A stretch of 64,000 bases of DNA, from assembly GCA_965263035.1 (NCBI GenBank), contig OZ253580.1:5120001-5184000 (forward strand). The letters are read 5' to 3'. This stretch comes from Acidobacteriota bacterium (GTDB taxonomy: Bacteria > Acidobacteriota > UBA6911 > RPQK01 > JAJDTT01). A program made the translations under genes and the position numbers. Numbering within the stretch: the stretch's first letter is position 1; every line of letters starts with the position of its first letter. The notes beneath the pieces were generated by a model, which searched no databases, was not told where the DNA came from, and saw nothing but the letters and a program-made list of their open reading frames with translations. Shown one piece after another: positions 16,445-34,751 of this stretch.

Positions 16445-17162
16445 TCACCGGGATTCGAACCGAAAGGCGAACAGGTCCGCGTCCTTCAGGACGAAGCGAA
16501 GACGCACATCTCGTCCGGCCAGCTCGCCGACGTCCGGACCCTCCGTCCAGCGGACCTCCCGCTCCAGCTCGTCCCCGAACGTGGGCGGGCAATCCTCCAG
16601 GCTGTAGCCTTCCAAGGGATTTCCCGCGGCGTCCTGGATCTCCACGCGAAGGCTCCCCGCCGCCGAAGTGGAGAAGTTCAGCAGCAGCCGATCCCCCAGG
16701 AAGCGAATGGGGCGAGTGACGATCTCCCCGCCCGACATGGGTGCCGAGACCGTCACGAACCCGTCCAACCTCAGGGTGTAACGCCGCAGGTTGAGACTCT
16801 CGCCTGTCCAGTACCCCTCGGTGGCGTAGATCGAAATCTCGTTGGGAGCTCCCTCGATGTGGCTTCGGGTCTCCACCAGACCCCAGTTCTGATTGTTGTC
16901 CCCGTAGACCCAGTTATCCACCGGTCTCAGACCAGGACGGATGAAGGCTTCCCGCCAGCGGTGGAAGTGGATCCGGTCGCGGCTTGCCATCAGGAGACCG
17001 TCGGTGAGGCCGGTTCCGTAACGGAGGCTGACGCCGGCTCGCAGCCGGCGATGCTCCAATCCCGGGAGGGCTCTCATGGAATCGGACCATCCCCGCTCAA
17101 GGTAGCGGTTGGGAAACCCCAGCAGGATGTGAGGGGCCCGGTGGTAGGGAATGATCTGGTTG
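16445..17162 (-). pseudogene. 3' half of a beta-propeller glycoside hydrolase gene split by the integrated element
   Basis: Begins NQIIPYHRAPHILLGFP and continues the 5' half ending ...EHLYTNQ at 29381. Confidence 0.85.
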
Positions 17163-17179
17163 TTATGCACATGTTCCCG
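17146..17179 (+). other. Left attachment site, 34-bp lox-like (13-8-13)
   Basis: AGGGAATGATCTG GTTGTTAT GCACATGTTCCCG; shares core CTGGTTG (17156-17162) with the right end. Confidence 0.75.
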
Positions 17180-17211
17180 TCATATGAATCTGTTACTATA
17201 TGGAGGAACAC

Positions 17212-18174
17212 ATGAGCATAAACCTAGCAGAATCAAGACTTTCCATTGTCCCAAAGATGGAACAGGATGCTACGCTATCCAAGCTTCTGTCTCAATCCCA
17301 CAGCATTAACACGCTCAAGGCATATAATGGACAGGTGAACGTTGCCAAGCGCCGGGGACTTGATACTGACAACCTCACAGACTATTCCATCGCTCGATAT
17401 GTCGCCCTCATGATGGACAAGGGGACCGCCTATGCCAGCGCCTACAATGCCGTGAAAAGCTTGAACTGGTATTGGAGAGAAACCCATGGGCGCAAGGCTA
17501 CTGGCCCCATGACGAAAAAAGCCCTCGAAGGATTCCACCGAGACCATGAAGCGCAGAAGCGAGGCTACGGCCAAGTGGACGGGATCACCTGGAAAATGGC
17601 CGATCAGGTCTGTTCTAGGCTGGATCAACTCCGGACCCTGACCGCCCTTCGAGATTCCATGATCTTCGGCATTATGTCGGATGCCCTTCTCAGAGCTTCC
17701 GAGATGGTCAACGTGAGAGTAGAAGATATCGTGAGAGATCCATCCGGTTCCGGACTGGTAATCATCCGCCGATCTAAAACAGACCAGTACGCCGAAGGGG
17801 ACACCCGATATCTCAGGGCCGAGACTCTGAAACGGATAGACACCTTCCTGGATAGAGTCGGCATCACGTCAGGTCATATCGCCGTCAGGTTCCATTCCAA
17901 CCGGTACACCCGAGCAGTCATGGTAAAGTCTCAGAAGCCACTCAAGACACCTGGAATCCGCCAACTCACCGTCCGAAGGTTGACTCAAGCTGGATACCAT
18001 GGCCGGTTCGGTTCGCACTCGTTCCGAGTAGGGTCCGCTCAGGAACTCGCCCGCAATGGTGCCGGAGATATTGACATCATGAGAGCAGGTGGATGGAAGA
18101 GAGCCGACACCGCCGCGAGATACACAAGGAACGTTGAGGCTGGTAGATCCGCAATGGCGAGACTCAGGGGATAG
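17212..18174 (+). CDS. Cre-like tyrosine recombinase/integrase
   Basis: RBS GGAGG; DALLRASE (R), RRSKTDQ (K), GSHSFRVGSA (HxxR), MRAGGW, ARY (Y); 320 aa, apparently no arm-binding domain. Confidence 0.9.
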   Translation: MSINLAESRLSIVPKMEQDATLSKLLSQSHSINTLKAYNGQVNVAKRRGLDTDNLTDYSIARYVALMMDKGTAYASAYNAVKSLNWYWRETHGRKATGPMTKKALEGFHRDHEAQKRGYGQVDGITWKMADQVCSRLDQLRTLTALRDSMIFGIMSDALLRASEMVNVRVEDIVRDPSGSGLVIIRRSKTDQYAEGDTRYLRAETLKRIDTFLDRVGITSGHIAVRFHSNRYTRAVMVKSQKPLKTPGIRQLTVRRLTQAGYHGRFGSHSFRVGSAQELARNGAGDIDIMRAGGWKRADTAARYTRNVEAGRSAMARLRG

Positions 18175-18181
18175 GAGAAAA

Positions 18182-18694
18182 TCAAGCCCCTGTAGGCCAC
18201 TTAGTACTCACGTAACGATATGACCTAGCGCGTTTTAGATTGCCCACCCTTGCCCACGCTTCGAAGAAGGGCAGAACGCGCCACCACTGTTCCAAGTCAT
18301 TTAACTTGGGATATTGAATCCCGAGTCTGTCCAGCTTATGTGTGACCGTCAACAGTGTCGTCCTCAAATCAGGAGAAATCCGAGGCTTTTGTGGATCGTT
18401 AGAAACTTCGAGCGTGTACTCAACTCCATTCCTCAGATGGTGGATGTCGTCCTCTAGAGCACGAAACTTGTTCTTAGGTCTCCACAAACGGACAGCGTCC
18501 CAACAGAAATTGATGGGAAGCACAATTGAAAACACCACCGCTATACAGGCCAGTAACAGGAAGAAAGGCGGGTGGATTTCTAAGTTTCCTAGCACCTTCC
18601 TCGGACCACTGTGAAGGGTCGAAACAAACATCCAGATTGCCCATATATCGATTCCCATAAAACTAGCAATCGTGGCAATTCTTCGAATCCGCAC
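18182..18694 (-). CDS. Hypothetical membrane protein (element cargo)
   Basis: 170 aa with two N-terminal hydrophobic segments; converges on the integrase. Confidence 0.6.
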   Translation of the reverse strand: MRIRRIATIASFMGIDIWAIWMFVSTLHSGPRKVLGNLEIHPPFFLLLACIAVVFSIVLPINFCWDAVRLWRPKNKFRALEDDIHHLRNGVEYTLEVSNDPQKPRISPDLRTTLLTVTHKLDRLGIQYPKLNDLEQWWRVLPFFEAWARVGNLKRARSYRYVSTKWPTGA

Positions 18695-18844
18695 CCAAGC
18701 ACTCTACACCCTATCCCGTATTTGCGTCGAGTGAACAATCACCCATGAACCGGCCCGGCCCATGCTCTGGTACTCGTGAATCAGGGGAGCCAAGAGAGAG
18801 CCTGTCAGAGCCCCTAGAATCGACGTTCTACCGGGAGACGGCCC

Positions 18845-19927
18845 CTAGCCTCCCTCCATATCAAATCCGCAGATCCTCGCCGCCTGTTCCGCCGTCAGGT
18901 TTCCGTCAGTTCCCGTCATCGAACTGAAAGCCCTCGCCCGGCCTTGTAGGTCGCTGGCAAAAAGCCCGGCAAATCCAAGACTGATTTTCGTATCCAGCTT
19001 GGTAGACAACTCAGATTCGATGATCCGAGAACACGGCTTTAGACTTCCATGAAGAAATCTGCGCCAGCTTTCTCGCTGGGACGATCCCTCCGCTGACGCA
19101 TCCGCCAGCGCTGGCGGTATGCCGTTAGCTGCTAGGATCACTCGGCCCACGTCGCTCCATAAATCTACGTTTCCTTGCGGAATTTTGGCTCCCAATCTCT
19201 GCGGCACCCAGTCTCTTTGCGGAGCACTTCCGCGCCCTTCCGACCATCCGCCGGAAGTCGTCTCAACTAGGCTAATGCCGCCGCTCAAAGCTGCTAGGTC
19301 TGTTCTAAGCTGTTTCAATGGGTCCGAGTCTGTACCGTCTCCGCCATCGCTAGGAATCGGCAGAACGTAGCCAACTGGTCCGGATGTTTCTTCCCCTAGT
19401 CTCGTTTCCAGGTTCGCCCCGAGACTGCCCGTAGAACAGGCAAACGAAAGGGGAGAGATCCCTTTCCAGGGGGAGGACGGATGGACCGCAAACCGCACAT
19501 GGACGACTGAGGATGCCGGATAGGTTCGGGAAGTGGTAGAGCTAGGGCCGGGAAGATCAACTCTGTAGATCCAGGATTCCGGATCATAGGAACCTTCCAC
19601 TTGCCAGCCGGACCCCTCGATTAACCTAACCTGTCCACTCGGCTTGATCTCAATTACAAATAGAACCTCGCCGCGCCGGACCATTCCCCGGCCCATAGAC
19701 GCCAGCACAGCGGGAGACAGTGCCGCAGTGACCGGAGACCCTACCGGAGAAATATCAGCACTTGCCAGACCCCGAGACCATACGCCCGCCGCCACTTCCA
19801 AAGCGCCCAGGCCGTCAGGGTCCGGAGTTATTCCCGTCGCCCTGTCTTGAATCGCCTTAACAATGGCATCCGTATAGGTTTCACTAGAACGAGTTTCGAG
19901 ACCTACAATCCGCCGCCAGTTGAACAT
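18845..19927 (-). CDS. Phage portal protein (HK97-like)
   Basis: GLETRS, RRGEVLF, VVHVRF...PWKGISPL, ILAANGIPP, LKP..RIIESELSTKL. Confidence 0.75.
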   Translation of the reverse strand: MFNWRRIVGLETRSSETYTDAIVKAIQDRATGITPDPDGLGALEVAAGVWSRGLASADISPVGSPVTAALSPAVLASMGRGMVRRGEVLFVIEIKPSGQVRLIEGSGWQVEGSYDPESWIYRVDLPGPSSTTSRTYPASSVVHVRFAVHPSSPWKGISPLSFACSTGSLGANLETRLGEETSGPVGYVLPIPSDGGDGTDSDPLKQLRTDLAALSGGISLVETTSGGWSEGRGSAPQRDWVPQRLGAKIPQGNVDLWSDVGRVILAANGIPPALADASAEGSSQRESWRRFLHGSLKPCSRIIESELSTKLDTKISLGFAGLFASDLQGRARAFSSMTGTDGNLTAEQAARICGFDMEGG

Positions 19928-20292
19928 CACGCAATTACCCCGGCCCTTCTGACCTTCCACGGATTCAGAAGTGATCCCGCTCCCGAGTATTTCAACGCGC
20001 CCAGTTCATCCCGGAAGCGTCTTGAGGATATTTCCGTATTTGCCGTCTTGATCGTTTTTCCCCTGGACGCATCCGCCAGCCATGAAACGATCCTCAAAAC
20101 CGATTCGTCTTTGATAGGGTCCGGAGCTAGGCTTGCATATCGCTCTACCAGTTCCGCCGCTACCGGACCGAACCGAAGCGCCCGAGACTGCCCGGACGAT
20201 CCCGAATCGTTAAAGGCTGACGTGGCAATCCGCATAACTGCGGCATCCTGATCTAGAATATCAACCGGCCAAGGTGCGAGATTCACAGCCAA
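19927..20292 (-). CDS. Probable head-tail connector/adaptor (gp6-like)
   Basis: AAELVERYA..AP..IKDE.VLRIV.WL; C-terminal SGA.SLL.PW..RRAG; position next to the portal gene. Confidence 0.55.
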   Translation of the reverse strand: MAVNLAPWPVDILDQDAAVMRIATSAFNDSGSSGQSRALRFGPVAAELVERYASLAPDPIKDESVLRIVSWLADASRGKTIKTANTEISSRRFRDELGALKYSGAGSLLNPWKVRRAGVIA

Positions 20293-20735
20293 ATTCTACG
20301 CCTCCCTTGCCGGTTCCTCAGTTCCGCCTTTCCCTGAGAATATTCCGGAGCCTTCACAATCGCGACCGCTTCCAAGAACGCGGAATTGATCTCCCGGACG
20401 CCGGAGCCGTTGCGCTTCTCTTTCAGGCTGTAGAATTCGATGCTGGCACCCCGGACCCCAGCCGCTAGAGCCTGGATTATCTCGGAAGTGGGATTTTCAG
20501 AACTGACTTGGATTCTGCCGTCCGGTAGTCGTACCGGCATCGACCTTAATTCTTCACGGTTTCCGTGACCTAGCCTGATAGCGATACCATCAGATCCCCA
20601 TTGCATCGAGCCGGGAGCAAACAATTCTTTTAATCCGCTTGCTATTCTTCCCTCTTGTAGCGCCGTCACTATCAACTTGGATTTTCCCGAATCTTCCCGA
20701 ATCTCACAATTTCCAGCTACTTGTAATTCTCTCAA
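20283..20735 (-). CDS. HK97-family prohead protease-like protein
   Basis: KELFAPGS, H, GASIEF, R.I..A.L..VAIV..PEY. Confidence 0.65.
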   Translation of the reverse strand: MRELQVAGNCEIREDSGKSKLIVTALQEGRIASGLKELFAPGSMQWGSDGIAIRLGHGNREELRSMPVRLPDGRIQVSSENPTSEIIQALAAGVRGASIEFYSLKEKRNGSGVREINSAFLEAVAIVKAPEYSQGKAELRNRQGRRRIWL

Positions 20736-21181
20736 CTTGATCTCCCATACCAGCGCCGAAGCGCTTTAGCGCACTCGGGAGACAATTCTCCCGAAGAATC
20801 CGCCAGCCGAGACGCCGCTACCGCTTCCCCTGGATCTACCGTTACAATCCGCCCTAAAGTGCCAGAGCCGCCAGCCGAGATGATCCGTTCCCGGATACGC
20901 TCAACGGCAAGTGGAGAGCTAGAGCTAGTCGTCGCCCAGCCGTTGAGACCCACACTTGCCGCGAATCTTATAGCAGTCGATTTCAAGTAAAGCGCCATTC
21001 TCAAACCGGGATCGGTAGCAAGCCGGATCGGATATCGTTTCGTAACAGGGTCCCTTTCTATTCCGAGAATCGACGACCAGATAGCCGTAACATCAAAGAG
21101 ATGGTCATCGCTGGACCTGTTCTCTTCGTACCATTTCGATTTACCGGCACCAGCCGGTCCCCTGATTATTCCTATCGGCAT
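20732..21181 (-). CDS. Small P-loop NTPase/kinase-like protein
   Basis: IIRGPAGAGKS Walker A; VDPGE..A..R; ends RRWY. Confidence 0.65.
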   Translation of the reverse strand: MPIGIIRGPAGAGKSKWYEENRSSDDHLFDVTAIWSSILGIERDPVTKRYPIRLATDPGLRMALYLKSTAIRFAASVGLNGWATTSSSSPLAVERIRERIISAGGSGTLGRIVTVDPGEAVAASRLADSSGELSPECAKALRRWYGRSS

Positions 21182-22443
21182 TAGACAAGTTTGAACGCCC
21201 GGAGATCAAAAGAATCTTCTCTAATCACTTTGAAATTCCAGAGACTAATTATCGTCAAAGCAACTTGACCGGATGCCGCCGCCGTATACGGATCTCGAAC
21301 GATCTCCACACCTTCCCAGATCGGAGCCACAGCGCCGGTAGCTAGTCGTCTCGTAACAATCGCCGTAGAAACATCCTTATCGGGTCCGGTTGTAGGAGCA
21401 ACCGGAAGATTTCCAGAAACACGAACGCTGGAAAGATCGGCCAAGTATTCCAGAGCCGTTCTAGTCACTCCCGCTGTCATGGTCTTTGTACTCAATTCTG
21501 GATAAAGATCGGAAGGGACCAACAGCCCCACGTCTGCCGCAGTTGCCGCATATTTTCCGTCCACCGCCCCAGTGACGGATTTCACGGCATCCGCCCACGT
21601 AAAAACATCGCTAGGAGTCGTCGGAGCCGTGATCGTTGTAAGGATTCCGGAGACATTAGGTGCCGTTCCGTTTCCCGTAATGGATTGAAGATCAATTGCA
21701 TCAGATACAGTGCTTGATAAGTCTGCCCTCAGAGTATCGTCCATCCCGTCCAACTGCGCCGAATCCTCCACAGAGAACAGATACCGCGCCGTGATCCTGG
21801 TAGGCGTCAGCACTGAGCTACTGAACGTCGCCGCTACCGCATTCTGAGCCACGCCCCGAGTCTTATTCTCTGCCGTAGCACCGGCAGTCAGAAGCGGATA
21901 TGCCGTGGTCCCAGTTGGGACCGTCGGCATGGAAACTCCGAGAAACTGCGCCGCAGAAGCGGCAAAGACTCTCCGGATTATTTGAGTCTGCCGATTCGGG
22001 AAATTTAAAGCCCCTAGAGCCGTCGCCACGTCTGACCGCTTCTCAGGTTCAAGCGCTTCCGGACCCGCCAGAGCAGCCCAGGGGAAGCGCCCAGGGGCTG
22101 CTTTCTCGCCTAACATGGCCGTCCGTAATTCAGACTCGGGAGAAGATTCGGCAAGCGGATTCTGTCCCCATGCTTCCAGCACGTAGCTAGAGAGTTTCGC
22201 TTTCCGAATGAGAGACCGAATTTCCGCTCCCTCGCCGTCTTCTCTATCAACCGGCGGGATAGCCTCATTCTCCGCGATGATGGCCGCTCTATGCCTAGCT
22301 TCAAGATCGGAAAACTCTTTCCGCAGGGTCTCGCCCTCAGATCTAATATCCTCAGTAAAGTCTGCCCCGGATAATCCAGCTATGGAATTCAGTCTTTCGC
22401 GCACCTCAGAAATTCGCAGTGTTATTTTCTGGCTTGTAGTCAT
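21181..22443 (-). CDS. Major capsid protein (HK97 fold) with N-terminal coiled scaffold domain
   Basis: 420 aa; helical N-terminus; LTPTRI, DL..ITGNGT.P..SGI, IVRDPYT.A..GQV.L. Confidence 0.8.
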   Translation of the reverse strand: MTTSQKITLRISEVRERLNSIAGLSGADFTEDIRSEGETLRKEFSDLEARHRAAIIAENEAIPPVDREDGEGAEIRSLIRKAKLSSYVLEAWGQNPLAESSPESELRTAMLGEKAAPGRFPWAALAGPEALEPEKRSDVATALGALNFPNRQTQIIRRVFAASAAQFLGVSMPTVPTGTTAYPLLTAGATAENKTRGVAQNAVAATFSSSVLTPTRITARYLFSVEDSAQLDGMDDTLRADLSSTVSDAIDLQSITGNGTAPNVSGILTTITAPTTPSDVFTWADAVKSVTGAVDGKYAATAADVGLLVPSDLYPELSTKTMTAGVTRTALEYLADLSSVRVSGNLPVAPTTGPDKDVSTAIVTRRLATGAVAPIWEGVEIVRDPYTAAASGQVALTIISLWNFKVIREDSFDLRAFKLV

Positions 22444-22459
22444 TTTTTATCACCTTTAG

Positions 22460-22795
22460 TTATAAATAGTTATCAGTTATGCTTATTCTAGTCGTTTTAT
22501 TTGAAAGTGTCGTTAAATACTCTCGCCATTCTACACTATCGGGGCTGATACGTGTATTATTTTCCTTGCGAGTTTTGGAAATATGACAGGGTACACATAA
22601 AGACTGGATATTGGATCTCCCATACAGAGAACCGCCAGCATTTCTAGGCTTGATATGATCCGCTTCCAGCTTCCCGCGTTTCCCGCAGCGCTGGCACTTA
22701 AAGCCCGCTTCCCGTAAGACTCGCCAGCGCAGCCGCTCCCACCTTCTGCCCTTCAATCCGCTCATGCCGCCCGTACCACTCCGCCATTCCGCCAT
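22460..22795 (-). CDS. HNH endonuclease (packaging-associated)
   Basis: RWERLR..VL...GFKCQRCG, EADHI.P...GG, NIQSLC..CH..KT. Confidence 0.9.
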   Translation of the reverse strand: MAEWRSGTGGMSGLKGRRWERLRWRVLREAGFKCQRCGKRGKLEADHIKPRNAGGSLYGRSNIQSLCVPCHISKTRKENNTRISPDSVEWREYLTTLSNKTTRISITDNYL

Positions 22796-24864
22796 GATCC
22801 GCCAGAATTCTTTATCCTCATGGTCTCGGCCAATCCAGCCGCAATAACTGCCGCTGAGAGACTGTCTATCCTCGATAATCCGGACCTTTTATCTAATGCC
22901 GGATTTCCGGCACCGTCATAGCGGAGACGGGAGCCAGCTACCGCACTCGACAGCATCATCGAATCGCCGTGAAATAGTTTCTTTTCCATCACGAACCGCT
23001 GGAATGCTCGAACGTCATGGGAGCCATCCGCTGTAGCACTCGCCCCGGTTCCGCGCCAGACAACCGGAGACCGGGAGCCAGCATCCGCTAGAGCCTGTTC
23101 CGTCTCTGCCCGCCGGTATCTATCCGCCCCGATCACTAGCACTCGTTCGCCAGCCAGTTTCGATAGGACAGACTGCAAAAAGACTCCGACCCGGACCATA
23201 CGCCCCTGATGGAGATTCAATTCTCCAGACTTCCTCATTAGGTCATATCGGATGCCGTCTCGACGTTGCCGAGCTTCGATCCCGGGCATCGACGGAAAAG
23301 CCCCAAAAACTTCGATCCGACCAGTTCCAGGCCATAAGGCTGTTGCGGCAGTCATAGAAGCGGACCCGCCTAGATCAATGCCCAAAACACATTTCCCGTC
23401 TCTTTCCGGTTGCGGACCGCTGCAACGCTTCCAGTCTGAAGGGGAAACGATCCTTTCCACGGATGGCGACCCCGGCAGATTCAAGTCTTGAGACCTAAAG
23501 AAAATTTCATCAGATGGAGTCGATTTAGCCCGCCTGGATTCATGCTCCATATACGCCGTGGCTTTGATGGTCCCTAGACCTGGATTAGCGTTTTCCCACT
23601 CAATTCGGTTCAGTAGGTCGCAATCCTTACTAGATGCCTGGAACAGATGCGCGACAACGCCAGCGGCTTCCCGCCTTTTCATAATTTCGGGAATGTAGGG
23701 ACCGCTCCCCCATATGGACAACGCTATAAATTTCCCGTTTTTCGCCGATACCGCAGCCCTCATGCTGGCGACTAGTTCCCGATCTCGTTCGGATAGCAAG
23801 CCCAGTTCGTCAACAATCGCTAGATCCAAGCTGGCGGAATGCCCGCCCATGCCCGAGTCACCAGCCAAAATCTCAACCTGACCATGCTTACTAACAATCT
23901 TTCCAGGCCATGGACTTCTCTTAAACAATAATGTTCTGGATAGTCCACTTGCTCCCGCTATTTGCTCAATTTGTTTCGTTAGTTCCCTCGCTTTAGCCTT
24001 GTTAACACTGCAAATTCCAGCCCGCCACCCACCTTTAACGTTTCTTAATGGCCCTACCAAGTGACCTAGGCAGAATACGGCAACTATTGCGGATTTAGCA
24101 TTCTTTCTAGCGAGACAGAGCAGCGCTTCTCTTGTCGATGGCTTTAAGCAATCACCTAGAAAATTGCGTCCAAAAGGTGGCAAAGCCATAGGCAGACCCT
24201 CTTTAGGATGCCCAGGGGGAACTATTAATGTCTCTTCTGCCCATGCTGACAACCGTTCTATCTTGGATTTCTTCCGTTTAACACTGCTACTCGGCCCTTT
24301 TCCCGGTATAACGTTGTTTTTCCGGTTGATTTTCCTCCAGGCACGAGCATTACACGCCCTAGTAGCATACTTTTTAGGTTTTTTGGTATTCTGTATCAAT
24401 TCAACGCCGCAGCCACAAGCACAGTATTTAAGTCTATTCCCTACTAGGCCAAGTCGCTTATTAGTAAGAAAAGCCTGAATTCTGCAATTATCGGTAGCGT
24501 ATAGAGTAGGTATCCCGTGGAGTTTATGTATCCGAGCTGGACGACCGCACCCGCAAGCGCAGTCCGGACCAGGATTCGGCTTTTCGTAAACCGTTTGATA
24601 TGATGCCCGATGCCGACAATTTTTTGAAGCGAATCCAGTCCATTTCCTCAGTGACTTCTCAGAGCGTGAAACCGGTTCACCACAACCGCCCCGGCAACGT
24701 GGTCTAGTCTCTGGTCTCAGTGAGTCTAGGCCACCCCTCGATCCCCCCGGTTCGGATGGATTCGGAACAGGGTCCCGGACCATTTTTTGATCCATATTCT
24801 CGTATGTACAAATTTTTGGATCATCCCCTTTGACCATCTTCGATCGAGAACCGACAAGCATCAA
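22762..24864 (-). CDS. Terminase large subunit with N-terminal Cys-rich repeats
   Basis: Walker A LARKNAKS, Walker B LAIVDELG, W..ANPGL, nuclease LGIDLG, RID...A; three N-terminal CxxGCG...CR/CN repeats. Confidence 0.8.
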   Translation of the reverse strand: MMLVGSRSKMVKGDDPKICTYENMDQKMVRDPVPNPSEPGGSRGGLDSLRPETRPRCRGGCGEPVSRSEKSLRKWTGFASKNCRHRASYQTVYEKPNPGPDCACGCGRPARIHKLHGIPTLYATDNCRIQAFLTNKRLGLVGNRLKYCACGCGVELIQNTKKPKKYATRACNARAWRKINRKNNVIPGKGPSSSVKRKKSKIERLSAWAEETLIVPPGHPKEGLPMALPPFGRNFLGDCLKPSTREALLCLARKNAKSAIVAVFCLGHLVGPLRNVKGGWRAGICSVNKAKARELTKQIEQIAGASGLSRTLLFKRSPWPGKIVSKHGQVEILAGDSGMGGHSASLDLAIVDELGLLSERDRELVASMRAAVSAKNGKFIALSIWGSGPYIPEIMKRREAAGVVAHLFQASSKDCDLLNRIEWENANPGLGTIKATAYMEHESRRAKSTPSDEIFFRSQDLNLPGSPSVERIVSPSDWKRCSGPQPERDGKCVLGIDLGGSASMTAATALWPGTGRIEVFGAFPSMPGIEARQRRDGIRYDLMRKSGELNLHQGRMVRVGVFLQSVLSKLAGERVLVIGADRYRRAETEQALADAGSRSPVVWRGTGASATADGSHDVRAFQRFVMEKKLFHGDSMMLSSAVAGSRLRYDGAGNPALDKRSGLSRIDSLSAAVIAAGLAETMRIKNSGGSWRNGGVVRAA

Positions 24865-25301
24865 CGACCACTCCCGCCACGTCTCTCGAAATTTCCACGA
24901 CGTAGCCTATCCGTCACCACTCGCACCGTTCCAGCTACCGCCCTTTGGACAAAAGCGGCAGGGACACCAAGCCGAGCCGATCCTGATGCGTTTAATTTCT
25001 CGATATGCCGCAGCCCATTAGAAACGTAGGTTTTTCCTCGTTCCAACTTGTAGCCAGTAAGGATAGCCCCGGAGGACGTTAGCCTATTCTCCCGAGCCTC
25101 CCGCAGCCCTCGAACTGTCCCATCCCCTTGCCCGCCCATCGACGGATTCCAGTTACTTGCCGTCCACGTCGATTCTTTAGGGCATTTATTATAAAGCTGG
25201 CGTGACGCTTCAAGTGTGGCGTTTACTACAGTGTTTTCGACAATTCGCCTAATCTCTTTGCGGATTGCCTGGATTTGAGCCTTTTCGCTTGCCGTGGGCA
25301 T
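24861..25301 (-). CDS. HK97 gp10-like neck/tail-completion protein
   Basis: CP.ESTWTASNW, YVSNGL.HIEKLN..GSA....PAAFVQRAV. Confidence 0.55.
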   Translation of the reverse strand: MPTASEKAQIQAIRKEIRRIVENTVVNATLEASRQLYNKCPKESTWTASNWNPSMGGQGDGTVRGLREARENRLTSSGAILTGYKLERGKTYVSNGLRHIEKLNASGSARLGVPAAFVQRAVAGTVRVVTDRLRRGNFERRGGSGR

Positions 25302-25352
25302 ATTTTGACTCTTGGAAACGGAACAGTTACAGGGGAATGGTCATTGACCTAG

Positions 25353-27117
25353 CCCGGATATCTCATCAGAAAGATTGATAAAGGCCGCGTTTTCTGCTAT
25401 AAGTGTTGTGTAATCAATAACTTACAAAGCAGAAGGGACGCGACCTTATGACCGCAGAGTGTACCAGAATAAAGCTCAGATTTCAGGGCCTGGACGGACG
25501 GGATGTCGTGGGCCGGTTCGACGGCGGCGAGATCACCTCCGACGCCGGTGGCGTGCTCCTGCGCGAAGTGGAGCAGCGGACCCGGATTCTGGGTCGTCTG
25601 AGCGAATGCTTCACCGACTATCGAGACTCGGATCGAGTCGAACACCCGGTGGAGGCGTTGATCAAACAGCGGGTGCTGGGGCTGTGCCTGGGCTACGAGG
25701 ACCTCAACGACCACGACGAGTTGTGCCGGGACCGGCTCTTGGCGCTGTTGTGTGATCGAGATGATCTGACGGGGGAGTTCCGGCGCGTGGAGTCGGATCG
25801 AGGCAAGCCGCTGGCAGGCAAGAGCACCCTGAACCGACTGGAGCGGACTCCGTTGGAGGGACCGGAGGGCGCGTACAAGAAGATCGTGGCCGACCCGGCG
25901 GGGATGGACGAGCTGCTGCTGGAGGTGTTTGTGGAAGCGCATCCGGAGCCCCCGGAGGAGGTGATCCTGGATGTAGACGCCACGGACGATCCGCTGCATG
26001 GGAAGCAGGAGGGACGGTTCTTCCACGGCTATTACAAACGCTACTGCTACCTGCCGCTGTACGTCTTCTGTGGGGAACACCTGTTGCGTGCGCGGCTGCG
26101 CACGGCGGATCGAGGCGCGGCCCACGGGGTGGTGGCGGAGTTGGAACCAATCGTGAGGCGGCTGCGTGAAGCGTGGCCCCAGGTGCGGATCACGGTTCGA
26201 GGGGACAGTGCCTTCTCCAACGACGAGTTGATGGTCTGGTGCGAGAAGGAAGGGATCGATTACGTCCTGGGGTTGGCGCAGAACGATCGGCTGAAGCGGA
26301 GGATCGCGACCCGGATGGAGACCGTCCGGCAGTTGCAGCGGGCGATCGGGAAGGCCGTGAGGCAGTTCCAGGAACTGCGCTATCAGACGCACAAGAGTTG
26401 GTCGTGCGAGCGCCGGGTGGTGGCGAAGGTGGAGCACCTGCCCCGGGGAAAGAACCCGCGATTCATCGTGACTTCGGTCCCGGTCCAGGAATGCGATGGG
26501 CGAAGATTGTACGAGGAGGTCTACTGCGCGCGGGGAGACATGGAGAATCGGATAAAGGAACAGCAGATGGGTCTGTTTGCGGACCGCACGTCGACCCGGA
26601 AGCTGGCGGGGAATCAACTGCGGTTGTATTTCTCGGCATTCGCCTACGTGATGATGGAGACGTTGCGACGGGTGGGGCTGGCGGGGACGAAGCTGGCGCG
26701 GGCGCAGAGCTGGACCCTGCGGGTGAGATTGCTGAAGATCGGGGCACAGGTCCGGATCACCAGCCGCAAGGTCTGGTTGTCCTTTTCCGAGAGCTATCCG
26801 TATGCGGCGCTGTTGAGGACGGCTCTGACGCAAGTGCAAGCCCTCCCGCTTCGCTGTTAGCAACGGATGGAAAGAACTCTTTGGACGATGGCGACTTGGG
26901 AGTCCCCAGGATGGACTGCGCCCCGGAGTGGGCACCGGGTCGAGAGTCGTCGCTCAGAAGCGCAGGATGGGCGTCAAAAGGCTCTGGAGAAGCGCTGCAT
27001 CTGGCCGTTGGTCGGCACGTTCGAGCACGAAAACTGCCTCTTGAACTCGTATGGATAAAGAATCACCCAGACGACGGTTCAACTTCCGTTTATTGTTCTA
27101 CTGATGAGAAATGCAGG
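25353..27117 (+). mobile_element. IS1380-family insertion sequence
   Basis: Terminal inverted repeats CCCGGATATCTCATCAG / CCTGCATTTCTCATCAG; CTAG duplicated at 25349-25352 and 27118-27121; GC much higher than its surroundings. Confidence 0.9.
25448..26860 (+). CDS. IS1380-family DDE transposase
   Basis: FDGGEITSDAG, GYEDLNDH, LDVDATDD.LHG.QE, RGDSAF, YCARGDMENRIKE. Confidence 0.95.
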   Translation: MTAECTRIKLRFQGLDGRDVVGRFDGGEITSDAGGVLLREVEQRTRILGRLSECFTDYRDSDRVEHPVEALIKQRVLGLCLGYEDLNDHDELCRDRLLALLCDRDDLTGEFRRVESDRGKPLAGKSTLNRLERTPLEGPEGAYKKIVADPAGMDELLLEVFVEAHPEPPEEVILDVDATDDPLHGKQEGRFFHGYYKRYCYLPLYVFCGEHLLRARLRTADRGAAHGVVAELEPIVRRLREAWPQVRITVRGDSAFSNDELMVWCEKEGIDYVLGLAQNDRLKRRIATRMETVRQLQRAIGKAVRQFQELRYQTHKSWSCERRVVAKVEHLPRGKNPRFIVTSVPVQECDGRRLYEEVYCARGDMENRIKEQQMGLFADRTSTRKLAGNQLRLYFSAFAYVMMETLRRVGLAGTKLARAQSWTLRVRLLKIGAQVRITSRKVWLSFSESYPYAALLRTALTQVQALPLRC

Positions 27118-27164
27118 CTAGGGGAAAAGGCTCCATTCCCCTGCAACAAGGAGATATCAAAGAC

Positions 27165-27173
27165 AGTATAGCA
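27165..27173 (-). promoter_or_regulatory. Extended -10 promoter (TGCTATACT) facing the packaging operon
   Basis: Same 9-mer as at 29247-29255; lies upstream of the gp10-terL operon once the IS is removed. Confidence 0.45.
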
Positions 27174-27426
27174 AAAAGATATGACTATTTATTGGGAATA
27201 TAGCCTCGAAGCCATAGTAAACAATGAAGGTAGGCTATTCACTACTGACAGTATCACTAAGGACACTCCAAATTAAGGCTCCGAGACTATAGGGTGATGA
27301 ATCCAACTGCATTATCTCATAAAAGGTATGACTAAAAATCTTTCCAGACCAAAGAGAATAGATAAAGCGTCAGCTTATAAACGATATGCCACAACGCCAA
27401 GAATATCAGCACGAGTACAAGCAACG

Positions 27427-27663
27427 TCACCGAGACGCCACTCTCCAGCGACGATCAAGCCGGGAGCCATCGACCCACCGCCAAGCTTGTATCCCTTCCA
27501 ATGGCCCCCAGTGCAAGGTAGCGATCTCTGCCCCATTGCCTTTTAGGATCAGCCTACCGCGCATCCGATCCCACTCTACAGCCGTCGCCCTGTAGATTCG
27601 GCAGTCATTCGATTTCCCCTGGAATTGCACTTGAACCGACTTGATCTTGATTTTTTGCATCAA
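27427..27663 (-). CDS. Small hypothetical protein
   Basis: 78 aa, co-oriented with neighbours; an overlapping + strand ORF is the alternative reading. Confidence 0.4.
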   Translation of the reverse strand: MMQKIKIKSVQVQFQGKSNDCRIYRATAVEWDRMRGRLILKGNGAEIATLHWGPLEGIQAWRWVDGSRLDRRWRVASR

Positions 27664-27691
27664 GTGAGTCTAGTGTACCAGGGAGACAGCG

Positions 27692-28105
27692 TCAGTCGTC
27701 GTGGTGTCCAGCGATCCGCGTCAAATCACGATAAAGGTCCCAAATATCACGAGCGATCATTGCCCCAGTTTTTCGGATAATTCTTCTCATCGTAGCTTCA
27801 ATTCGACCCTCACTAGGAGGACGGATTCCCGGAGGAAGGGTCTCGATGGGATACACATACGATTTATGTAAGTCGCTTCCATCATACTTTGTTGATTGTT
27901 CCATTATTTTTCTGAATTTATGTCTTAAGCCATCTGGAAAATCTTGTTCTCTCAGTGAAGATAGGTGGTAAATCAGCGCGTCTTTCAATCTATTCCTCAC
28001 ATCTCCCTTCCCAACGCACATAGTTTCAATCGCTAAAGTTACTCGTTCAAGAACGTCCTTTGCTTTTTCTTTGTTTCCCATCGGAACTAGACCCCCGTAA
28101 GCCAT
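27692..28105 (-). CDS. Hypothetical helical protein (element cargo)
   Basis: 137-aa AT-rich ORF; G.GDVRNRL, DFP..LR, EGRIEATM. Confidence 0.6.
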   Translation of the reverse strand: MAYGGLVPMGNKEKAKDVLERVTLAIETMCVGKGDVRNRLKDALIYHLSSLREQDFPDGLRHKFRKIMEQSTKYDGSDLHKSYVYPIETLPPGIRPPSEGRIEATMRRIIRKTGAMIARDIWDLYRDLTRIAGHHDD

Positions 28106-28108
28106 CCC

Positions 28109-28514
28109 TCACTTAGTGGCATCTCCGCAATCTTTCATGACCCGACATATATCGCTCATAGACTCTTTGATTCTTATAATTTTCATTGATTGCGATTTAT
28201 TGAGTTTACGGAGCACAGTCGCTTCGGACTGTGAAACCTTGTCGTCTGGAAACTGTTGGGATGGAATATTTGCATTATAAAACCGGATGTTTTCGCATCG
28301 GTCCAGCAATACTGGCCGTGGCTTATTCGATGACATCTCAGGTCGGAGTTCAAATTTTTTGGATTCCAAATTTTCATACCAAACATGCTGGGCAACTACT
28401 GTGACCAGCAAATACCTTGGATCAGCATCACAGGGCTTTTCAGCCTGCACCAGACCCGTGAACAGAACCGCCAGCAATGCAAAATTCTTGCCAAAGTTGC
28501 AGCCCTCACTCATG
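28109..28514 (-). CDS. Hypothetical exported Cys-containing protein (element cargo)
   Basis: Signal-like FALLAVLFTGLVQA after MSEG; upstream RBS GGAAGG. Confidence 0.5.
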
Positions 28515-28792
28515 TTCCCCTTCCTTCCTTCTCGCCCTAGTCTCCAAAATTTGCCGTATCCGCTCACGGGATATCCCGAACCGGCCACCGATCCTCTCTA
28601 ACGTCTAATCCGCAGCCCGAAGGGACCGGATGACCCGGTTCCGTATTGGCCGATGGTGTGGAACTGCTTTTTTCATGCCGCTTTATTCAGGATTTCTTCT
28701 TTTTTTATTTTTAACACTTCAACCTATAAAGTGAAACAACTTAACGATGCTTTCTCTAGTCTGGAAGATACTCAGGAAGGATTCTCACTCGG

Positions 28793-29240
28793 CCCCTTCT
28801 CTCTCCCCCTATAGATCCTGTTTCGATTACCCTGGATAGATTCAGGCAGAGAACTATCTAGCACTGTGCATGCGTTAGGAAAATACCTTCCGCACACACA
28901 GTCCTGTTCCTTGTCTGAATCTATGATCCCGCTCCGATCAGAGCCTATCAAGACCCAGGCAGAGACCCAAAAGTTGTGGATCTCATGGCGTCAGCTACTT
29001 TATCGCGGAGCAACTTCTCACACGTCATGCTCCCCTTCCGACGCTCCGAACTGGGGAAGAATCCTAGTGCATGATGCACGGCAGTGGATTCATTTTTTGC
29101 GGATTACTTACTTCCTCGATCCCTGCCGCCAAGCGGTTCGAGAAAGGTGCAATGTCACGCCCGCTCCAATCTTGAATCCAGCCTCAAGACTCCGAGTGGA
29201 TCAGACCCGGTATCCCAATCGCCTTAAGGCTGGATTCGAT
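28793..29240 (-). ncRNA. Candidate highly structured non-coding RNA (about 410-450 nt)
   Basis: Extended -10 just upstream; about 9 consecutive hairpins whose non-Watson-Crick pairs are mostly G-U on the minus strand; ends in a purine tract. Confidence 0.55.
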
Positions 29241-29246
29241 GGAGGG

Positions 29247-29255
29247 AGTATAGCA
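29247..29255 (-). promoter_or_regulatory. Extended -10 promoter of the candidate ncRNA
   Basis: TGCTATACT; predicted +1 near 29240, 3 nt before the first 17-bp stem. Confidence 0.5.
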
Positions 29256-29330
29256 GATAGGTCTGTAAAAAAGAAGCGTTTTTCCAACTTTTTATCATAC
29301 CATTGTAAATTTAATGCTCAATGCCGAGGC

Positions 29331-29359
29331 TTGACACTGGAAAGGGAATTTAGTACAAT
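29331..29359 (+). promoter_or_regulatory. Near-consensus sigma70 promoter pointing out of the element's right end
   Basis: TTGACA-N17-TACAAT. Confidence 0.7.
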
Positions 29360-29370
29360 AGGCGAGTAGT

Positions 29371-29404
29371 AGGGAACATACTGGTTGGTGTAGAGATGCT
29401 CGTC
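29371..29404 (+). other. Right attachment site, 34-bp lox-like
   Basis: AGGGAACATACTG GTTGGTGT AGAGATGCTCGTC; core CTGGTTG at 29381-29387. Confidence 0.75.
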
Positions 29405-30212
29405 CGGAGAACCGGTGGTAGTTGAGCCAGACCGGATCGGTCCAATTCAGAAAATCCTGGGAAGTTCCGGTCATGACGTCCCGGATACCCTTGGTTCTCG
29501 GCTGATTCTCCGCAGTCTGCCTGAAGTCGCGGTGGTATTCGCGGTACTCGTTTCTGACCGAATCCCAGAAAGCCAGGTTCTGGGAGTCGAAGTAGCCCTT
29601 GGTGATAACCGGGCGGTCCGCCATCAACTCCCAGTGGATGGCGTCGGCCGACTTCCAGGCGTAGAGTCCCCATTTACGGCTCAAGGAGAAGGCCTTGTAG
29701 CGCGCGTCGGGCGAGGCCGCCGGATTTGCGTCCTTGAAAGGGACGAAGTTCCGAATCGTATCCCCGTTTGGGAGCCGATCCAGGAGGATGTTGTTCCGCT
29801 TCGACCCCTCGAACTCGACCAGGCCCAGTTGGGGCCGGTACCAGTGGATCCCGTCCAGACTCTCGGCGTAACAGGTCACCTGCCGGCGTGGGAACTCGAG
29901 CTTCTTCCCGGTCACGAAGTGCCAGCCCCGGTAGTACATGCGATAGCGGTTTTCATCCTGGAAGATAGTGAAAGTGAAGCAGGCATTCCCCTCCCACGGA
30001 CGATCGGTCACCAGGGCCACTCCTTGGGGAATCGGGCGTTGCAACCGGAGTCGAGCCTCGCCCCGGAGTTCTTCCACCAAGCTCGGTTCCACGAACAACT
30101 CCAGCCGGGAACCGATGTCCAGGACCTCCGAGTGGAGGCTCCAGCAGAGCATGGGGAAGAGCATTGCGAGGATCCGCGGCCTACTGAAAAGCGACGTCAA
30201 GGTCCGGTTCAT
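29381..30212 (-). pseudogene. 5' half of the split glycoside hydrolase gene (also has a +1 frameshift near 29416)
   Basis: MNRTLTS signal, ELFVE, DRPWEG, CYAESLDG.HW.RP, FDSQN.AFWD; GSPDEHLYTNQ lies in a shifted frame. Confidence 0.85.
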
Positions 30213-30232
30213 TCCTGTTTCTTCCTTTCGCT

Positions 30233-31738
30233 TCAGTCCGAGGTGCGGGCCGGGAAGATCCGCGACAGCACCAGAGCCGATCCGAACGTGATCAGCGAGG
30301 AGACCGGGATCACCCACATCCAGGCCAACCGGGGGAGGCCGAAGAGCCAGTGGCCCTGGGCCCAGACCAGGCCCGCCGACATTCCCGCCAGCGCCGATAA
30401 GATGACCGCCCGGCCGCTGGCCGGAACCTTCAGTATGGCCAGAAACATCATGGCCCCCAGAGTGCCCACCAGGAAGCTGCTGATGCGACCCGTCAGGTCG
30501 AAGAGGTTCCCCCGCTGATCGTCGGGAATCGAATCCAGAAGGAAGCAGGTCAGTATGGCCACGACTCCCGCCGCCACGGTGACGGCGCGCGCCAGGATCA
30601 TCTCGGCGCGGGGACCGGCAACCGTCCTGCGCAGGCGCCTGTAGTAGTCGGTGATGATCACGGACGAGATGGAGTTGATTCCCGAATCCAGGCTCGACAT
30701 GGCGGCGGAGAAGAGGGCGGCCACCACCAACCCGGCCAGGCCCCGGGGGAGGACGTGGCCGATGAAGTGGGGGAAGACGCTGTCCGTGTCCGCGGGGAGA
30801 TGGGTCCGGTAGTAGGAGTAGAGAGCCATGCCGCACAGGCTCAGGAGGAGGGTGATGACGACGCTCGCCGTCAGGTTGCAGGCGAAGGAGCGGCGGGCCG
30901 ACCTGGCCGAGTCGGTGCTGAGGTAGCGTTGCACGGCCACCTGGTCTCCGGCCGCGGTGCAGATCCACCAGAAGAAGGTCCAGGTGATCATTCCGAACCA
31001 GCTCAACCGGACCGTCGGATCGAGGCTGAAGAGCGGTTGCGGTTCCATCTCAGCCGCCGCCATTTCCTGGTACCAGGTGATCGGTCCGGTCCCGGCGTCG
31101 AAGGCGATGTAGCCGATGGTGAAGAGGGCGCCCCCCAGGAGAATGAAGAACTGGACCACGTCGGTCCAGATGACGGCGCGGATTCCCCCCAAAGTCGTGT
31201 AGAGGGTTCCCACGGCCGCCACCCCCAGGACCACGGTCGCGAAGGGCAGGCCGCTGATGGTCGCCAGTGCGCCGGCCGCCGTGAAGACGATGGTGCCCAT
31301 CCACGCCAACCGGATCAGGACGAAGATGGAGGCCCCGAAGAGGCGCGTGGGCAGATCGAACTGCCGCTCCAGGCATTCGTAGGCCGAGGTGATCTTCAAT
31401 TTCATCAGGAAGGGGACCACCAGGTAGCCCACCAGTACAAAGACCAGGGGATAGGAGAGCAGCTGCGAGTTGGCGCCCAGGCCGTGCTTGATGATCTCAC
31501 CGGGGTGGGAGAGATAGGTGATGGTGGAGATGATCGAAGCCAGCAGGCTCAGTCCGACCGCGAACCAGGGCATGTTCCGCCCCGCCAGGAAGTACTCCTC
31601 GGTGTCGCTCTGGCGCCGGCTGAAGTAGTAGCCGAGGAGGACCACGGCGGCCAGGTAGAGGAGAATGGCCGCGTAGTCGATGCCGTGGAGCCCCTGAAAT
31701 CGGTCGGGCGGACCGCCCAGGGCCAGCAAGGTGCTCAT
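30233..31738 (-). CDS. Sodium:solute symporter (SSS/SLC5 family)
   Basis: EEYFLAGRNMPW, YTTLGGIRAVIWTDVVQ, DQVAVQRYL, AAMSSLDSGINS. Confidence 0.9.
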   Translation of the reverse strand: MSTLLALGGPPDRFQGLHGIDYAAILLYLAAVVLLGYYFSRRQSDTEEYFLAGRNMPWFAVGLSLLASIISTITYLSHPGEIIKHGLGANSQLLSYPLVFVLVGYLVVPFLMKLKITSAYECLERQFDLPTRLFGASIFVLIRLAWMGTIVFTAAGALATISGLPFATVVLGVAAVGTLYTTLGGIRAVIWTDVVQFFILLGGALFTIGYIAFDAGTGPITWYQEMAAAEMEPQPLFSLDPTVRLSWFGMITWTFFWWICTAAGDQVAVQRYLSTDSARSARRSFACNLTASVVITLLLSLCGMALYSYYRTHLPADTDSVFPHFIGHVLPRGLAGLVVAALFSAAMSSLDSGINSISSVIITDYYRRLRRTVAGPRAEMILARAVTVAAGVVAILTCFLLDSIPDDQRGNLFDLTGRISSFLVGTLGAMMFLAILKVPASGRAVILSALAGMSAGLVWAQGHWLFGLPRLAWMWVIPVSSLITFGSALVLSRIFPARTSD

Positions 31739-33188: not shown

Positions 33189-33608
33189 TTGTCTAGATCC
33201 TTCGGGCACATTACCAGTTCCGGTTCGATGTGGGACTCTCACCATTGACGGTTCGATCTCCGTCTCCCTGAGAGACTGTGAGGCTCGCAAACGAATCCAT
33301 TCAATTCAATGTGGCCCTGTGTAGTCGGGGGCGTGACTATCAGCCGTGCCAAGCATAATCTGCTGAAATTGTTCTTGCTGCCGATCCCGGATCGTGCCGG
33401 CTCGCAAGGACGCACGGAGGTCAGCAAGGCCGCCTCTGACCACGGAACTGGCTCCCCGCAGATCGCTAAATCCTCGGGACCCTCAAAGATGAAGTGCCGG
33501 TTTGAACTCAGCTGTCAAGAGCAGTAGCCTGTCCAGGACTTCTGGATGCTCTGACGGTCGTGTGTCCGGGCGTTCGAGAACGTGATTCCGCGAGCTGCTG
33601 TGGAGAGG

Positions 33609-34751
33609 ATGATGGGAGAAACCCAACACCGGGAAACACCTGAAAAAGAGTTTGTTGACCACTGGCACGAAGAAGATGTAGATATCCTCGATGAAGCTGA
33701 GGAGGTCATTCCCTACATGTACAGCATCACTTCCTATGGTGCTGACTACCCGGTGGACTCCCTCGTAAAACGACTCGAGTCCGGCGACATAACTGTGCCG
33801 ACATTCGACTGGGTTTCCGAAGAAGACACTGATGTCGTAGGATTTCAACGCGAATATGTATGGTCGAGGCCGAAGGCGGACAAGTTCATAGAGTCCCTCC
33901 TCCTCGGTCTGCCTGTTCCCGGTATTTTTCTGGTCAAGGAAGCGAAGGGGCGCTTACTGGTACTGGATGGGCACCAGCGGCTTCACACCCTCCACGCTTA
34001 CTACAAAGGCGTCATAAATGGACGAGAATACCGCCTCCAAAACGTACAAGAGCGTTTCGTGGGATTGCGTTTCCGGGATCTGGATATGGAGGACCGTCGT
34101 CGACTCGATGACAGCATCATTCACGCCACCGTCGTCAGGCAGGACGAGCCGACTCAGGACCAGAGCAGTATCTACATAATCTTCGAACGTCTCAACACTG
34201 GAGGTGTCAACCTCCAGCCACAAGAGATCCGGGTGGCGCTCTATCATGGGGAACTGGTGCGGGTTCTGAAGAGCCTCAATGAAGAGCAGGCATGGCGAGG
34301 ACTGTACGGCAAGAAATCCAGACGCCTGAAGGACATGGAGATGATCCTCCGATTCTTTGCCTTCTACTATCGCGCCGATCAATATCGCAGCCCCATGAAG
34401 GATTTCTTGAATCGCTATATGGCCGAGAATCGGAACCTCGGCAGGCAGTCCGAGGCAGAACTGCGAGAGGTCTTCTCCAAAACCACTTCAGTTCTGAATA
34501 GCACCCTGGGACGGCGGGCATTCCGACCCAAGAGAGCTGTGAACGCTGCTGTCGTGGACTCGTTGATGACGGGTGTTGCCAAACGTCTCAGGTCTGGAGA
34601 GATACGGGAGGCTGCCCAATTCCGGGATCGGTACAACTTGCTACTCGCAAACGAGGAGTACATCGCGGCCACTGAGACAGGGACTTCGCAAGACGCTAAC
34701 GTCAAGGCCCGAATGAGGCTCGCGAAGGATATTTTTGTGGATGTCAAATGA
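33609..34751 (+). CDS. DUF262 (ParB/GmrS-like) domain protein
   Basis: FQREYVW, FIESLLLGLPVPGIF, VLDGHQRL, IFERLNTGG; RBS GGAGAGG. Confidence 0.85.
   Translation: MMGETQHRETPEKEFVDHWHEEDVDILDEAEEVIPYMYSITSYGADYPVDSLVKRLESGDITVPTFDWVSEEDTDVVGFQREYVWSRPKADKFIESLLLGLPVPGIFLVKEAKGRLLVLDGHQRLHTLHAYYKGVINGREYRLQNVQERFVGLRFRDLDMEDRRRLDDSIIHATVVRQDEPTQDQSSIYIIFERLNTGGVNLQPQEIRVALYHGELVRVLKSLNEEQAWRGLYGKKSRRLKDMEMILRFFAFYYRADQYRSPMKDFLNRYMAENRNLGRQSEAELREVFSKTTSVLNSTLGRRAFRPKRAVNAAVVDSLMTGVAKRLRSGEIREAAQFRDRYNLLLANEEYIAATETGTSQDANVKARMRLAKDIFVDVK

Follow-up and report, generated by a model that had tools for sequence, protein, structure and literature searches.

The window, which is the whole stretch of DNA that was analysed (64 000 nt), has a G+C content of ~62% with a lower stretch at 17-29.4 kb, and here we found an integrative island of ~12.2 kb (17163-29365) carrying an integrase gene (int), genes for portal, capsid and large terminase (TerL), an IS and a cargo cassette. 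The island interrupts a glycosidase-like gene, the parts of which lie at 16445-17162 and 29366-30230 on the minus strand. This gene is intact in five genomes of the genus (80-88% protein identity) and belongs to a family with ~100 paralogues per genome in the genus. By alignment to four intact orthologues we placed the left end of the island at 17162 and the right junction at 29366-29381, with flanks that overlap by 22 nt. An imperfect 33-nt repeat is found at both ends, with the left att copy at 17144-17176 and the right att copy at 29369-29401 (plus strand). Near the junction the N-terminal half of the interrupted gene is out of the orthologue's frame. We also came across a contig joint leading from 16648 to 29528, which has 20 letters on one side and probably stems from a paralogue of the interrupted gene; we infer nothing from it. 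Approximately 4 kb beyond the right island end (33582-34751, plus strand) lies a restriction-type gene with a GmrSD_N domain (PF03235).

The int gene (17200-18174, plus strand) encodes a tyrosine integrase (PF00589), which aligns to Xer-type recombinases over residues 28-311 and has no separate arm-binding domain. Portal, capsid and large terminase are encoded on the minus strand and were assigned with Pfam and PHROGs: the capsid matches PF05065, the portal matches phrog_12 as well as PF04860, the latter with 34.8 bits and hence below the Pfam cut-off of 39.1, and the large terminase (PF20441/phrog_9) is a classical TerL with a nuclease domain. The terminase gene (22762-24864, minus strand) codes for 700 aa, of which the first ~160-200 residues are without counterpart in the closest relatives and belong to no Pfam family. 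The IS, with a DDE_Tnp_1_4 transposase, is located between the packaging genes and the cargo cassette (25350-27121); in public DNA runs it is covered ~15-fold more deeply than the flanks, and we therefore take it to be multi-copy in the genome. Among the scanned ORFs of the island no tail or lysis family was detected. In Pfam, PHROGs and NCBIfam we recognised no AlpA-type regulator, primase-replicase or small terminase and no replication gene, and the sole hint of a small terminase is a weak terS-like match of o149 (E 0.00028).

At the right end, opposite to int, lies the region that we analyzed most closely, 130-570 nt inside the island. The promoter scan of this end, which used consensus matches only and covered 2.6 kb, found 3 sites where 3.1 were expected, and the consensus of the host may differ. 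Two of the promoter-like sites stand back to back: TTGAGC-16-(TG)TATGAT on the minus strand (29294-29321, 9 of 12 consensus matches) is directed into the island, and the near-consensus TTGACA-17-TACAAT on the plus strand (29331-29359, 11 of 12) is directed outward across att. Only in the excised circle would the outward site lie ~60-70 nt upstream of int and face it, and strong int expression might depend on excision if this predicted promoter is used. Direct reading of the minus strand shows the extended -10 TGcTATACT (29247-29255), from which a long structured RNA had been proposed to start in the first-pass annotation, as well as the two features proposed to follow this RNA, namely the 18-nt purine tract AGGGGGAGAGAGAAGGGG (28810-28793) and an AT-rich spacer (~28680-28760). 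All three were found where they had been annotated. The consensus scan detected no plus-strand (antisense) promoter-like site within 28793-29255 and no terminator-like site on the minus strand between the hairpins described below and the cassette.

The DNA past the AT-rich tract is not empty but contains a three-gene cassette with a G+C content of 0.46, composed of an HTH pseudogene, o134 and o137, all on the minus strand. The first is an unannotated 56-codon frame (28506-28676) with a sigma-70 region 4-like HTH, which across 51 residues shares 90% identity with the N-terminus of a metagenome protein (P0024); P0024 matches Pfam Sigma70_r4 (E 1.1e-06) and has its HTH domain fused in frame to an o134 homologue. 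The frame is broken by a TAG (28605-28607), and the corresponding residue of P0024 is tryptophan. Stop and start overlap between the HTH frame and o134, and a gap of 3 nt separates o134 from o137. The o134 gene (28109-28513) codes for a small protein that is hydrophobic at its N-terminus and has four invariant cysteines. We found four metagenome homologues of it (64-70% identity), and among 136 other genomes of the class 3 contain distant ones (5 loci). The product of o137 (27692-28105) is a conserved helical protein with 22 homologues; its family was located at 12 genome loci and 7 metagenome loci, and the records come from Acidobacteriota, Alpha- and Gammaproteobacteria, Chlorobi and Bacillota. 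Its family is made up of helical proteins of ~130 residues that occur across several phyla without conserved neighbours. Neither o134 nor o137 belongs to a family in Pfam, PHROGs, PADLOC or NCBIfam, and the structure model of o137, a helical bundle (pLDDT 78.1), has no fold match in the PDB (best E 0.66); nor did the Atlas offer a usable lead on either protein. The cassette is real and tightly packed, and all three products have homologues. With its IS insertion and the stop codon in the HTH frame, the island as a whole looks partly decayed.

We then compared the folding energy of the 463-nt region (29255-28793) with that of dinucleotide shuffles. On the minus strand it folds with -185.0 kcal/mol versus -153.2 +/- 6.2 kcal/mol in 100 shuffles (z = -5.15, none of them as good) and on the plus strand with -155.8 versus -130.8 kcal/mol (z = -4.54). 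The region is unusually foldable on both strands. However, when the region was divided, better-than-shuffle folding was confined to two hairpins, which we call H1 and H2. H1 (29174-29237, minus strand; inverted repeat I2/I18) is composed of a 17-bp stem (29237-29221 with 29190-29174) around a small branched top, contains two perfect 10-bp half-sites and begins 3 nt after the transcript start predicted from the extended -10. Folded alone (29170-29241) it reaches -35.6 kcal/mol on the minus strand (z = -5.16) and -27.0 kcal/mol on the plus strand (z = -3.42). H2 (28836-28924, 89 nt, minus strand; inverted repeat I1/I11) is an imperfect hairpin of ~33 pairs with small internal loops, the long stem of which is ATAGATTCAG...CTGAATCTAT (28924-28836); folded alone (28832-28933) it reaches -47.3 kcal/mol on the minus strand (z = -6.13) and -41.2 kcal/mol on the plus strand (z = -5.89). 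In each of these four cases none of 200 shuffles was as good. The 17-bp stem and the long stem had both been annotated from the letters alone, and they lie at exactly these positions.

The remaining sequence behaves differently. The stretch of 238 nt between the hairpins (28935-29172, minus strand) holds most of the short helices of the proposed RNA of about ten helices, but its folding is at chance level, with z = -1.19 on the minus strand (25 of 200 shuffles as good) and z = -0.31 on the plus strand (68 of 200), and windows of 150 nt at 28925-29075 gave z-scores of -0.08 to -1.21. We observed an excess over shuffles of ~16 kcal/mol for H1 and ~22 kcal/mol for H2, which covers the 32 kcal/mol found for the 463-mer, and the excess stability of the whole region is therefore assigned to H1 and H2 only. 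In a scan over 17000-30500 (13.5 kb), 180 windows of 150 nt were folded and 5 had z-scores of -4 or lower on either strand. H1 or H2 accounts for three of them, and the rest are located in the terminase gene and at an IS end. The 64-kb window contains 7 inverted repeats whose arms measure 15 nt or more and are complementary to 84% or more, H1 and H2 included; such repeats are infrequent, but these two are not the only ones. The candidate is two strong hairpins and not a single large folded RNA: of the earlier proposal the foldability holds on both strands, while the helices between the hairpins do not stand out from shuffled sequence.

The minus strand had been favoured because about ten of the pairs are G-U pairs, which would be mismatched on the other strand. 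We counted 7 G-U pairs on the minus and 4 on the plus strand in H1 and H2 together, and 17 versus 10 in the whole folds; the minus strand is also richer in G (137 versus 103), and the plus strand has its own significant fold. The G-U pairs do not decide the strand, and the argument is weak. The energies differ between the strands, H1 being more stable by 8.6 kcal/mol and H2 by 6.1 kcal/mol on the minus strand. When folded as single-stranded DNA both hairpins are significant as well (z = -3.70 and -2.69 for H1; z = -4.94 and -4.82 for H2).

These folds on both strands and with DNA parameters bear on the possibility that H1 and H2 are DNA-level elements, that is inverted repeats bound by protein or extruded as cruciforms, which we regard as somewhat unlikely. 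As candidate roles they could be operators of the back-to-back promoters, recombination-accessory sites by attP or components of an origin at which the replication proteins of a helper act. H1, with its two half-sites, lies 60-130 nt from two promoter-like sites and ~130-190 nt from the att core, and an AT-rich tract follows. Moreover, the motif GAATCC/GGATTC was found 5 times in 28779-29237, where ~0.6 are expected from the 79 sites in 64 kb, although the sites were counted post hoc and the H1 arms account for two of the five. For an operator, however, the loops of 34 and 51 nt are a wide arm spacing; a recombination-accessory role is at odds with an Xer-type integrase that has no separate arm-binding domain; and for an origin we recognised no initiator gene and TRF detected no tandem or iteron-like repeats in the region. 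The 12-mer GATYGGAGCGGG is indeed present in two copies as annotated, but 58 of 300 shuffles score as well, which is chance level. The energetic preference for the minus strand also argues against a function in the DNA. A tandem duplication of ~232 nt, suggested by the repeat spacings, was rejected, as TRF reported none and local alignment was at chance level.

Next, we searched for known RNA families and for coding potential. With the 4227 models of Rfam 15 and the gathering threshold of each family as criterion, no match was obtained across the whole window, and even at E up to 10 the stretch 28300-29700 gave only 6 matches with 10.8-19.7 bits, compared to thresholds of 36-167. This agrees with the first-pass annotation, in which no known family had been recognised. 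A retron, a group I or II intron and a riboswitch were rejected, with no RT gene nearby and no Rfam match. The region is spanned on the plus strand by a 167-codon ORF (28866-29369), which we judged spurious: it has no Pfam or PHROG family, and a HMMER search of 1.84 billion representatives returned 2 matches only, both to short stretches of long repeat proteins. A conserved protein in this frame, which would have spoken against an RNA, is not what we found. On the minus strand ORFs of 59 and 43 aa gave a single weak PHROG match (E 0.024), none of them credible. A 26-codon ORF (29028-28948) that shares a 15-mer with the start of o134 was also considered, but its score of 26 is not significant compared to shuffles (mean 20, maximum 29).

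The Rfam result also concerns the suggestion that the region is a packaging RNA of the phi29 pRNA type. The element does carry capsid, portal and packaging genes; however, pRNA was among the families without a match, and for packaging the island uses a classical TerL that includes a nuclease domain (PF20441, phrog_9), not a phi29-type ATPase. To our knowledge classical TerL motors need no pRNA, and we consider the probability of this reading to be negligible.

In order to find relatives of the region we searched several collections. It is single-copy in its own genome, which excludes a repeat family or MITE. BLAST against 60 related genomes returned one 30-nt match at chance level, and no match was found in the phage and plasmid collections. 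Covariance models built from the single sequences found H2 in none of 100 relatives and H1 in 1 of 100, a marginal match (E 0.038 per genome), and neither model had a match in 28 loci (297 873 bases). Of two 17-mers searched in IMG/VR, one gave 4 chance matches that lack the second arm and the other none. The neighbours were no more informative: none of the o137 family loci (12 and 7) has o134, the HTH or similarity to the region, o137 was found in none of 400 other genomes of the phylum, and upstream of the o137 and o134 homologues we observed no comparable or consistent structure. The distant o134 loci (5 loci in 3 genomes) show no similarity, with none of 85 upstream windows below z = -3, and the search with the o134 alignment in viral and metagenome contigs found no relatives.

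The large terminase was more productive. While a TerL scan of the genome contigs collection found none, among 400 other genomes of the phylum 11 contain relatives, and the closest belongs to a syntenic island of another genome from this genus (G001; L022 9600-19400). The two islands have TerL, capsid, o149, o150, portal and int in common (35-60% identity). The G001 island has a different insertion site, next to a gene with a metallo-beta-lactamase fold, and an unrelated upstream module, in which none of 48 windows falls below z = -3, none of 7 ORFs matches a Pfam family and no replication genes are recognisable. Since this module differs and is without comparable structure, the hairpins belong to the variable cargo end of the island and not to its conserved core. 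It had been proposed that the region stands in for the absent replication genes. The G001 island, which lacks both, speaks against this, and the missing recognisable replication genes are a trait of the island family that is not compensated by the region.

The lack of relatives in all collections searched could also be explained by a non-functional relic, with hairpins derived from decayed sequence (a palindromic insertion or a dead gene) in a decaying island. The IS insertion and the in-frame stop in the HTH ORF would fit such a history, as would the absence of a comparable structure from the G001 island and from the upstream regions of the o137 and o134 homologues. Long near-perfect stems are lost fast in the absence of selection, however, and here two of the seven best inverted repeats of 64 kb share a single ORF-free stretch, with 250 nt between them; each occurs only once in the genome, hence there is no repeat family from which they could come. 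We consider a relic unlikely.

The same comparisons weigh on the most far-reaching reading, a functional long ncRNA. It would be a satellite RNA of ~450-560 nt on the minus strand, whose purine tract seeds an R-loop origin without an initiator protein as in a ColE1 RNA II-like primer, or a P4-like immunity or regulatory RNA processed from a leader. If this were true, H1 and H2 would be functional modules in a phylum without described satellites. The order of the features is in keeping with it: a promoter-like site is followed by ~450 nt with hairpins, an 18-nt purine tract and AT-rich DNA, and the region is poor in ORFs, without a known-family match and located in an island with no recognised replication gene. 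Nevertheless, we regard this reading as very improbable. The central 238 nt fold at the level of shuffled sequence; the Rfam search, even when extended to E of 10, returned neither an RNA I nor a C4/CI-type match; and the consensus scan detected no antisense promoter-like site in the region. The primer proposed in the first-pass annotation is thus not borne out. Since the G001 island is without the structure and without recognisable replication genes, the island family does not depend on this RNA, and the region accompanies a variable cargo cassette of lower G+C content (0.46) rather than a conserved module. Finally, satellites poor in replication genes are known: the available part of one report describes satellites that have encapsidation machinery but lack key replication genes (PMC10690885).

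We tentatively prefer another reading, to which we assign somewhat less than an even chance, namely that H1 and H2 are two cis-acting RNA hairpins in a leader of ~560 nt. The untranslated stretch would reach on the minus strand from ~29240 to 28677, between the back-to-back promoter region and the first gene of the cassette, and the hairpins would most likely act in the RNA of the predicted minus-strand transcript. If the extended -10 is used, H1 would form the very 5' end with 3 unpaired nucleotides and could either protect the RNA as a 5'-terminal stem-loop or be a site that overlaps the point where transcription starts. H2 could be an RNase III-type processing site, or it could act in front of the cassette as a hairpin for stability or attenuation. 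The analysis itself shows the hairpins with their statistics, the genes around them and the ends of the island, and it is the transcription, its start site and the mechanisms of both hairpins that we infer. Four sequencing runs compared with the window were contigs of even depth, in which no start, end or strand of a transcript is visible. We prefer an RNA over a DNA element because of the orientation, with the hairpins downstream of the minus-strand promoter-like sites and co-oriented with every gene of the following operon, and because of the energy advantage of the minus strand, the absence of a minus-strand terminator-like site from the scan and the absence of a conserved ORF from the region.

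Several observations weaken the leader reading. On the plus strand the folding is almost equally good (z = -4.54 for the region and -5.89 for H2), the G-U asymmetry is small (7 versus 4) and the hairpins are significant also as DNA, where protein-binding inverted repeats or cruciforms fit equally well. The promoter-like sites occur at chance rate (3 versus 3.1 expected) with a consensus that may not be that of the host. In an island that looks decayed by its IS and its HTH stop the hairpins could be relics; 7 comparable inverted repeats in 64 kb mean that they are not rare; and no relatives were found in the collections searched. All in all, the region looks like an ordinary leader or regulatory/control region at the edge of an island, and the feature is an orphan hairpin pair in a regulatory stretch of a mobile island; its earlier interpretation is largely unsupported. 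Strong hairpins in the leader or control region of mobile elements are common, and this orphan pair without relatives matters little as it stands, whereas the long ncRNA, if true, would represent a new mode of replication or self-control in a satellite. What the analysis changes is that the large RNA becomes two hairpins, that an HTH pseudogene is seen to head a conserved cassette and that the exact ends of the island are defined.

With regard to known systems, the island as a whole is most readily compared with the cfPICI satellites. By its gene content it has the cfPICI-type set (integrase, capsid, portal and terL, no tail or holin gene), and its dependence on a helper is putative. As far as the available part of the report goes, cfPICIs likewise combine an integrase with their own capsid, portal and large terminase in ~10-14 kb, with no tail or lysis genes seen (PMC10085698). 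The core genes named there also include an AlpA-type regulator, a primase-replicase, an HNH gene and a small terminase (PMC10085698), none of which was recognised here, and the phylum of the host is outside those given in that part of the report for cfPICI (PMC10085698). A literature search for phage satellites together with structured RNA found no paper, from which we do not claim that none exists.

Among large RNAs, the region resembles ROOL and GOLLD in being non-coding and prophage-associated; in contrast to them it has two supported hairpins only, no family of relatives and no Rfam match, a comparison which assumes that both are in the Rfam set searched. The likeness to ColE1 RNA II lies in the succession of a promoter-like site, several hundred nucleotides with stem-loops, a G-rich tract and AT-rich DNA. 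Unlike ColE1, the region has no RNA I match, no antisense promoter-like site and a centre at chance level, and it is part of an integrative island with terminase packaging instead of a plasmid. As with the P4 CI RNA/C4, a satellite leader could yield a small regulatory hairpin whose pairing partners are repeated sites of its own transcript; here, however, no Rfam family was matched with E allowed up to 10, the 12-mer repeat does not exceed chance and no significant complementarity of this kind was established.

The closest counterparts are leader hairpins, of which the 5' stem-loop of ompA and the RNase III sites of T7 and lambda are examples. The pair described here differs from the ompA, T7 and lambda leaders in having no sequence relatives, and its start site and role are deduced from the letters of the DNA. 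Like 5'-terminal stem-loops and RNase III leaders, it would place strong hairpins in an untranslated leader, one of them at the predicted 5' end. H2 in particular resembles the RNase III leaders, as it is an imperfect duplex of more than two helical turns that stands before a polycistronic operon.
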